64,000 nt of DNA from assembly GCF_055900595.2 (NCBI RefSeq), contig NZ_CM148325.1, one strand, 5' to 3'. Of this stretch, positions 25,907 through 26,399 are shown in pieces; position 1 is the stretch's first letter; the number at the start of each line of letters is the position of its first letter. The notes beneath the pieces were generated by a model. It did no database searches and was not told the origin of the DNA. It saw only the letters and a program-made list of their open reading frames with translations. A program made the position numbers and the translations under genes.

Positions 25907-25984
25907 TATCGAATCGTTATTATGTGCAGGTGATTCGGCAGTCTATATCAGTTGTTAAAAATGACAACTTTTCATTAACTGTTA

Positions 25985-26214
25985 TCAAACCATCACCAGC
26001 GATAACTCTTTGCCAAGCGCCTTAGCCGCAAGCTGGACGGCGTCGATTTTTGTCGCATGGTGCAAGTTAAATAAGCGAGTAATTTCCTGTTTAGGTTTGC
26101 CAATTCGCCTGGCTAACTCTTGCTGAGTGATTTCTGACTGTAAAAAAGCATTTAACAGCAATACATTAGAGGCGACGCTCAAAGGCACTTCAATAAAGTG
26201 ATCGTGACTATTTA
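25985..26214 (-). pseudogene. hicB: hicB antitoxin remnant: C-terminal HTH domain only; hicA absent
   Basis: Open frame encodes ...SPLNSHDHFIEVPLSVASNVLLLNAFLQSEITQQELARRIGKPKQEITRLFNLHHATKIDAVQLAAKALGKELSLVMV. An in-frame TAA and unrelated sequence lie immediately upstream. ydcR-to-yncJ spacing is ~0.5 kb shorter than I recall for K-12. Confidence 0.5.
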
Positions 26215-26399
26215 ATGGCGAAGTTTACCTCCGTGTGTAATGTGCTCGAAAATAGCACTAAATCGCCGCAACGGCAGAATGCAATGCAAAATCAGGAAGG
26301 AAGATTCCAGAATTTCTTTGCGCTAATTTGCAAAACTGAATAATAACCTCAAGAAACGATCGGCATCATAGCGGCAAAAGGTCAGAAAAAGGTGGCGGG

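Follow-up and report, generated by a model that had tools for sequence, protein, structure and literature searches.

The ydcR-yncJ interval in the stretch of DNA analysed here (the window, 64,000 nucleotides of one strand) is very probably a dead locus, what one 445-bp deletion left of a chromosomal hicAB type II toxin-antitoxin (TA) operon. This derived deletion is old and occurs widely within Escherichia coli, and the remnant is real, already known and annotated. In the explanation that best fits the sequence, one illegitimate deletion with 1-nt microhomology took hicA, the hicA-hicB spacer, residues 1-60 of HicB and 44 bp of upstream DNA at once. The lost 44 bp carried the proximal promoter region and half of an operator-like repeat. 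Joint removal of toxin and antitoxin function would provide a safe exit from an addictive module, and the HTH domain, left without a start codon, a ribosome-binding site or an intact operator, would then evolve unconstrained.

Organization of the ydcR-yncJ interval

The window is a piece of the E. coli chromosome in the orientation opposite to K-12, with the local order ydcS, ydcR (minus strand), the interval containing the hicB remnant, yncJ (plus strand) and rlhA/ydcP (from 26726, minus strand). Positions 25907..26399 make up exactly the whole ydcR-yncJ interval, which is 493 bp long in the window, where K-12-like genomes, O157:H7 and further genomes with an intact locus have 938 bp, and alignment puts the difference at exactly 445 bp. 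The first-pass annotation had put this spacing at about 0.5 kb shorter than in K-12, which the measured lengths bear out. The features of the interval and its flanks are as follows.

24500..25906, minus strand: ydcR, MocR-type PLP-dependent regulator, intact, left flank (468-aa ORF; PGAP annotation in the near-identical strain Z0117EC0005)
25907..25984, minus strand: hicB-ydcR spacer, 78 bp, unchanged from the K-12 length (alignment)
25985..26222, minus strand: very probable hicB pseudogene remnant, with the Xre-type HTH DNA-binding domain and linker (tblastn, PDB, Pfam and PGAP label at equivalent coordinates)
25985..25987, minus strand: stop codon of the remnant, TGA
25988..26221, minus strand: codons for HicB residues 61-138, with 1 nt of codon 60 beyond
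25985..26188, minus strand: 67-aa ORF, the longest that the remnant still contains, with an internal GTG as its start (V72 of HicB; ORF list)
26222..26223, no strand: deletion junction, where 445 bp of the K-12 arrangement are absent (three-way alignment and 17-allele alignment)
26225..26227, minus strand: in-frame TAA, two codons upstream of the first kept HicB codon (frame-0 translation)
26223..26228, plus strand: GTTTAC, all that survives of TGTTTAC, the right arm of the inverted repeat that precedes hicA
26223..26399, no strand: kept 177 bp of the 221-bp yncJ-hicA intergenic region, forming the yncJ upstream region (alignment)
26400..26630, plus strand: yncJ (DUF2554), intact, right flank (76-aa ORF; PGAP annotation)

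Both neighbours look unaffected by the deletion. The 78-bp spacer upstream of ydcR is kept along with its sigma-70-like site (TTGTCA-16-TAGACT, 25967..25940), a consensus match that was found in a promoter scan and is also present in the K-12-like locus; yncJ retains 177 bp of upstream DNA. The spacer site was the only one that the simple sigma-70 scan returned. The hicAB genes and ydcR have been termed 'likely cotranscribed' (PMC5120126), and read-through transcription of the remnant towards ydcR is possible. An Rfam scan of the whole window found no structured RNA at the locus. Elsewhere, Rfam placed the sokB antitoxin RNA next to hokB (41494..41645, plus strand) and the RydC sRNA at 42205..42268 (plus strand).

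Identity and reading frame of the remnant

The remnant aligns with residues 61-138 of K-12 HicB at 98.7% identity over 78 aa (77/78 identical, E 2e-47, tblastn), K79N being the single amino-acid difference, and it matches the same residues of the PDB entries 6HPB/6HPC and 6U0I, 'Antitoxin HicB' (E 2e-44, PDB sequence search). HicB's C-terminal domain, which binds DNA, is present (Pfam HTH_3, PF01381, E 6e-8), and the stop codon of the window allele is changed from TAA to TGA. Only the C-terminal part of a HicB-like antitoxin is left, as the first-pass annotation had stated, though its figure of about 70 codons slightly underestimates the 78 codons of homology plus stop. Homology begins at residue 61, and the N-terminal partial RNase H-like domain of HicB, which binds and neutralises HicA, is absent from the remnant.

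Upstream of residue 61, the HicB frame reads ACT and then TAA, on the minus strand at 26225..26227, which closes the frame. This is the in-frame TAA noted earlier, and it stems from the kept GTTTAC arm of the inverted repeat. The sequence beyond it, previously described as unrelated, is indeed there, but alignment identifies it as the K-12 yncJ-hicA intergenic DNA. A complete hicB frame with start and translation signals is absent from the remnant, where only the internal GTG at 26188 is available; the sequence read directly before this codon (5'-CACGATCACTTTATTGAA-GTG) contains no Shine-Dalgarno-like motif, and there is no ATG either. The remnant is probably untranslated.

A tblastn search with K-12 HicA, a small RNase with a dsRBD fold whose gene in a functional module lies immediately upstream of hicB, found no hicA gene before yncJ, in line with the earlier reading of the ORFs, nor elsewhere in the 64-kb window (best match E 7.6), and no intact hicAB is hidden at the locus. 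Among the elements of a functional HicAB module, the HTH domain is retained, while hicA, the HicB N-terminus, the full hicB frame and an intact operator-like repeat are missing. The K-12 hicAB locus (hicA/yncN and hicB/ydcQ, a type II TA operon) shares its chromosomal site and orientation with the window locus. It possesses the toxin, full-length HicB, the hicA ribosome-binding site and the whole operator-like repeat, whereas the window locus is predicted to be devoid of toxin, antitoxin activity and an autoregulated promoter.

Extent of the 445-bp deletion

The window was aligned with the corresponding regions of the K-12-like strain CIT (locus L001) and strain EC100. Against the K-12-like locus there is one clean 445-bp gap, and the rest is collinear; K-12 itself differs in arrangement from the window, having the full 938 bp with hicA and hicB, which answers the check by pairwise alignment that the first-pass annotation had proposed. 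The junction, 26222|26223, has 1 nt (G) of microhomology, leaving the breakpoint ambiguous by one base. The missing segment corresponds to positions 2024-2468 of L001, in which hicB occupies 1786-2202 and hicA 2248-2424. The deletion thus took HicB codons 1-60 and the 45-bp spacer between the two genes, along with hicA in full and the 44 bp that precede its start codon. The earlier description of a hicAB locus reduced to the C-terminal HTH half of hicB is supported. It had further proposed toxin loss with retention of the DNA-binding half as a decay path; here the loss was one event and not a stepwise decay, in that one 445-bp deletion removed the toxin gene, the antitoxin N-terminus and part of the promoter/operator region.

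The lost 44 bp contain the hicA ribosome-binding site, and they also held the left arm and spacer of the repeat GTAAACA-N4-TGTTTAC, plus the first base of its right arm. HicB is reported to repress the proximal promoter P2 via an inverted repeat, hicO (PMC10865869; PMC11594946). Judged by that description, GTAAACA-N4-TGTTTAC is the likely HicB operator hicO; the hicA upstream region has no other strong inverted repeat. The kept 177 bp possibly hold the distal hicAB promoter, P1; no CRP-S or CRP core match of 8/10 or better was found in 26223..26399. Slippage between direct repeats was also considered as the origin of the deletion, since GTAAA is found both at the left breakpoint and within the inverted repeat, in its left arm. 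It was rejected, as it predicts a 433-bp deletion that keeps the palindrome, contrary to what is observed.

Polarity and distribution

The outgroup Escherichia sp. E1V33 has a full-length locus at the same site, with approximately 91% DNA identity across the region and a HicB that is 100% identical to the K-12 protein. In addition, a 138-aa HicB is on record for E. marmotae. Given that the remnant begins mid-protein behind a stop codon and that the outgroup E1V33 carries the full-length locus, the short form is the derived one.

To follow the deletion across genomes, a junction 56-mer was used with 28 nt on each half, which cannot match intact loci. It occurs unbroken in 1092 of the 5426 complete E. 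coli genomes (20%), and the deleted 445-bp segment was found in 4256 of the 5426. Carriers of the junction include CFT073, UTI89, O25b:H4-ST131, ATCC 25922, clone D i14 and APEC O1:K1:H7, and E2348/69 bears it as well. These are the classic strains of phylogroup B2. The deletion is typical of phylogroup B2 reference strains rather than specific to the strain of the window, in which no Clermont phylogroup marker lies within the 64 kb. None of the 100,044 species-representative genomes contains a 26-mer of the junction; a 25-mer of hicB, the same in 17/17 sampled alleles, matched only Escherichia sp. E1V33 and left the E. coli representative unmatched as well.

The remnant has been recorded before. 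PGAP labels it 'hicB ... incomplete; partial in the middle of a contig; missing N-terminus' in all deletion genomes opened, including Z0117EC0005, EC100 and CFT073. The CFT073 version of the 67-aa ORF appears in GenBank as 'hypothetical protein c1862' or 'Cro/CI family transcriptional regulator', on 547 contigs. A preprint reports that phylogroup B2 lost hicAB (bioRxiv 10.1101/486399), and, according to a figure legend in a review, MG1655, W, EDL933 and UTI89 have no TA system that all of them conserve (PMC7167474).

The B2 pseudogenes of CFT073 (c1862), UTI89, ST131 and ATCC 25922 share the junction, the 493-bp interval and the PGAP label with the window. CFT073 and the window are nevertheless 4.6% apart over 11.5 kb and differ at about 8 of the 238 remnant positions; the CFT073 remnant has P103H and K127N, where the window has K79N instead. 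E2348/69 has the same junction but lacks another 144 bp of the remnant, and elppa4, E700025 and AST20 have the junction together with S89*; the window has neither that loss nor that stop. Decay of another chromosomal TA locus in E. coli, ccdO157, was reportedly described by Mine et al. in 2009 (cited in PMC7167474). Like hicAB, ccdO157 is a type II module on the chromosome that varies across the species, and degraded or inactivated copies of it occupy a fixed site. It belongs to another family, and the loss of hicAB is one deletion that ended toxin and antitoxin function together, in place of stepwise inactivation by point mutations.

Decay of the remnant

Selection on the retained codons was compared between 12 deletion alleles, including that of the window, and five intact alleles. 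In HTH codons 77-138, the intact alleles show no nonsynonymous and nine synonymous variants, while the variants private to deletion alleles number eight nonsynonymous and three synonymous (Fisher p = 0.0014), a ratio that is indicative rather than definitive, given the small sample of 17 alleles, the choice of some of them as junction variants, partly for diversity, and a correction for common descent that consisted only in scoring each distinct variant once. The eight nonsynonymous changes are K79N, S89*, G101S, P103H, A116V, K127N, K127E and M137I. Over all retained codons, the nonsynonymous to synonymous counts are 5:13 in intact alleles and 8:3 among the variants private to deletion alleles (p = 0.027). 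The nonsense mutation S89* is shared by elppa4, E700025 and AST20, where PGAP reports an 'internal stop', and a secondary 144-bp deletion lies within the remnant of E2348/69.

Partial homology at the site of an intact gene in relatives, relaxed constraint across the 17 alleles and further disruption in related lineages are together what is expected of a pseudogene. The comparison indicates that the remnant is probably a pseudogene that drifts without constraint rather than a small regulator that has been kept. The window allele is at an early stage of this decay, with the 67-aa ORF still open, K79N as its one amino-acid change and the stop codon altered from TAA to TGA, and shows little decay by itself. 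The substitution K79N is common to the window and strain A21, and is absent from 2017-02-2CC, which is otherwise like the window.

One junction on several haplotypes

The identical junction is carried by at least four flanking haplotypes (the window compared with loci L005, L009, L010, L011, L012 and L027-L029). Group I comprises the window, Z0117EC0005 and 2017-02-2CC; group II comprises CFT073, EC100, A21, RM14723, FDAARGOS_1284 and E2348/69; and group III comprises elppa4, E700025 and AST20. The fourth haplotype is that of AP025751.1 and AP025747.1, two Escherichia sp. deposits whose locus tags begin with 'EsCd1', and the same protein has been named from E. coli STEC_7v. Groups I-III are 3.0-4.6% apart over 11.5 kb and are no closer to one another than to intact genomes. 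In the kept part of hicB, synonymous variants that are otherwise private link each group with some intact allele. No island of identity around the junction, which would point to recent lateral spread, is visible among the deletion carriers: between groups I and II, about 10 of the 415 bp on either side of the junction still differ, and the adjacent 500-bp windows differ by 3-4%, which fits an old single origin and the alternatives alike. The most likely explanation is one old deletion whose flanks were later swapped by homologous recombination.

Weighing of alternative explanations

Repeated formation of the identical junction by a site-preferred deletion, for example through breakage at the hicO palindrome, would also place it on flanking haplotypes (at least four) that differ by 2.4-4.6%, and would account for the resemblance of each haplotype to some intact allele in the kept 3' part of hicB: group I shares GAA at E106 and TTA at L110 only with 32A22CPO009, and group III shares AGA at R98 only with CB8671. 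One breakpoint, moreover, falls within the inverted repeat. However, the breakpoints have just 1 nt of microhomology in common, which gives slippage no evident cause to return to the same two bases, and the 12 sampled alleles include no near-miss junctions. Where RecA-mediated homologous recombination meets a 445-bp heterology, its tracts should end, so that flanks can be exchanged right up to an inherited junction. Recurrence seems quite unlikely next to a single old deletion with exchanged flanks. An artefact of assembly or sequencing, or an ancestral short form from which K-12 gained hicA and the HicB N-terminus by insertion, would explain the bare length difference and nothing more; with the same junction in 1092 independently finished genomes, a remnant that starts mid-domain behind an in-frame stop and a full-length locus at the same position in the divergent outgroup E1V33, either has next to no probability.

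The remnant might instead act as a stand-alone small HTH regulator, translated from an internal GTG or TTG and repressing hicO-like or other targets. The 67-aa ORF is open in the window, where K79N is its only substitution, and in most of the sampled deletion alleles; it goes under the name of a Cro/CI or HTH protein in several annotations, some of the DNA upstream of hicA is kept, and HTH motifs of HicB dimerise the E. coli protein (PMC10865869). Yet private variants run at 8 nonsynonymous to 3 synonymous, versus 0:9 in intact alleles, one lineage has a nonsense mutation and E2348/69 an internal 144-bp deletion. The GTG is preceded by neither an ATG nor a Shine-Dalgarno sequence, half of the local operator-like inverted repeat is gone, and PGAP flags a pseudogene. 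A functional regulator is accordingly very improbable, and a decaying remnant of hicAB is the reading that we retain.

Other losses of hicA

The 445-bp deletion is one of several lesions at this locus. A 22-bp deletion within hicA, with a 4-nt CGCA microhomology, frameshifts the toxin gene, as in strain YZLc23-1 (L006, 1048-1202), and leaves HicB identical to the K-12 protein (WP_001270286.1). Its junction 56-mer is fully present in 811 of the 5426 genomes, that is, in at least 15%, and one or the other of these hicA-inactivating deletions occurs in at least 35% of complete E. coli genomes. In addition, strain WP7-S17-ESBL-04 has an IS1 between hicA and hicB (L017, 2680-3700), and in strain FDAARGOS_943 (L018) a larger deletion fuses a truncated ydcR to a truncated rlhA. 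In the E1V33 draft (L026, 1569-1741), hicA matches in two frames, owing either to a real frameshift or to a consensus error.

Strain context of the window

Over positions 18000-34000, the window is reported as 100.0% identical to Z0117EC0005 (dog, Korea) and to seven human isolates. The whole window is 99.94-99.99% identical to Z0117EC0005, apart from two IS insertions of that strain: an IS200/IS605 tnpA insertion of about 706 bp between ydcH and rimL, missing from the window at about 34817, and an IS150 insertion of about 1.44 kb by hokB, missing at about 41569. The source of the window is therefore closely related to Z0117EC0005 but a different strain. Over 11.5 kb, the window lineage is 4.1-4.6% from K-12, CFT073, elppa4, CB8671 and 32A22CPO009, versus 2.3-3.0% among those five. 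The excess divergence is concentrated in short patches at 20796-20895, 22196-22595 (ydcT), 22996-23095, 27450-27749 (rlhA) and 29650-29849, in which each 100 bp holds 8-20 differences and the other five genomes hardly differ from one another. These patches look like imports from a more distant Escherichia.

Several other genes of the window also deserve mention. The gene ydcS, which encodes the substrate-binding protein of the ydcSTUV ABC transporter (23111..24255, minus strand), is split by a frameshift into ORFs at 23111..23827 and 23809..24255; PGAP calls it 'frameshifted' in Z0117EC0005, and it is intact in K-12, CFT073, elppa4 and other genomes opened. From the Z0117EC0005 annotation, the orphan toxin gene ortT maps to about 18348..18521 (minus strand), and a type VI secretion island of vgrG, a DcrB-like gene and an Rhs toxin, with downstream Rhs fragments, maps to about 746..7887 (minus strand), both positions being approximate.

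Implications

The appropriate annotation of the region is a hicB pseudogene rather than a regulator or an antitoxin, and this hicAB module should be counted as absent from the strain. Statements about hicAB that are based on K-12 do not extend to B2 pathogens such as CFT073, UTI89 and ST131. The presence of the 445-bp deletion in 20% of genomes and of a hicA frameshift with perfectly conserved HicB in at least another 15% suggests that the toxin is dispensable or costly, and that HicB is kept wherever the deletion spares hicB. The repeated loss of hicA across the species, together with one junction on many haplotypes, is what most merits specialist attention. A further, rather doubtful idea is that the deletion allele crossed lineages by recombination, or formed repeatedly at the hicO palindrome, and rose in frequency since loss of HicA was advantageous. 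The allele would then be more than a passive B2 marker. Such an advantage would fit the occurrence of the junction on at least four haplotypes, one of them in the Escherichia sp. genomes tagged 'EsCd1', the independent 22-bp hicA deletion, the IS1 insertion and the apparent frameshift in the outgroup. If true, it would amount to convergent selection against the HicA toxin across Escherichia.
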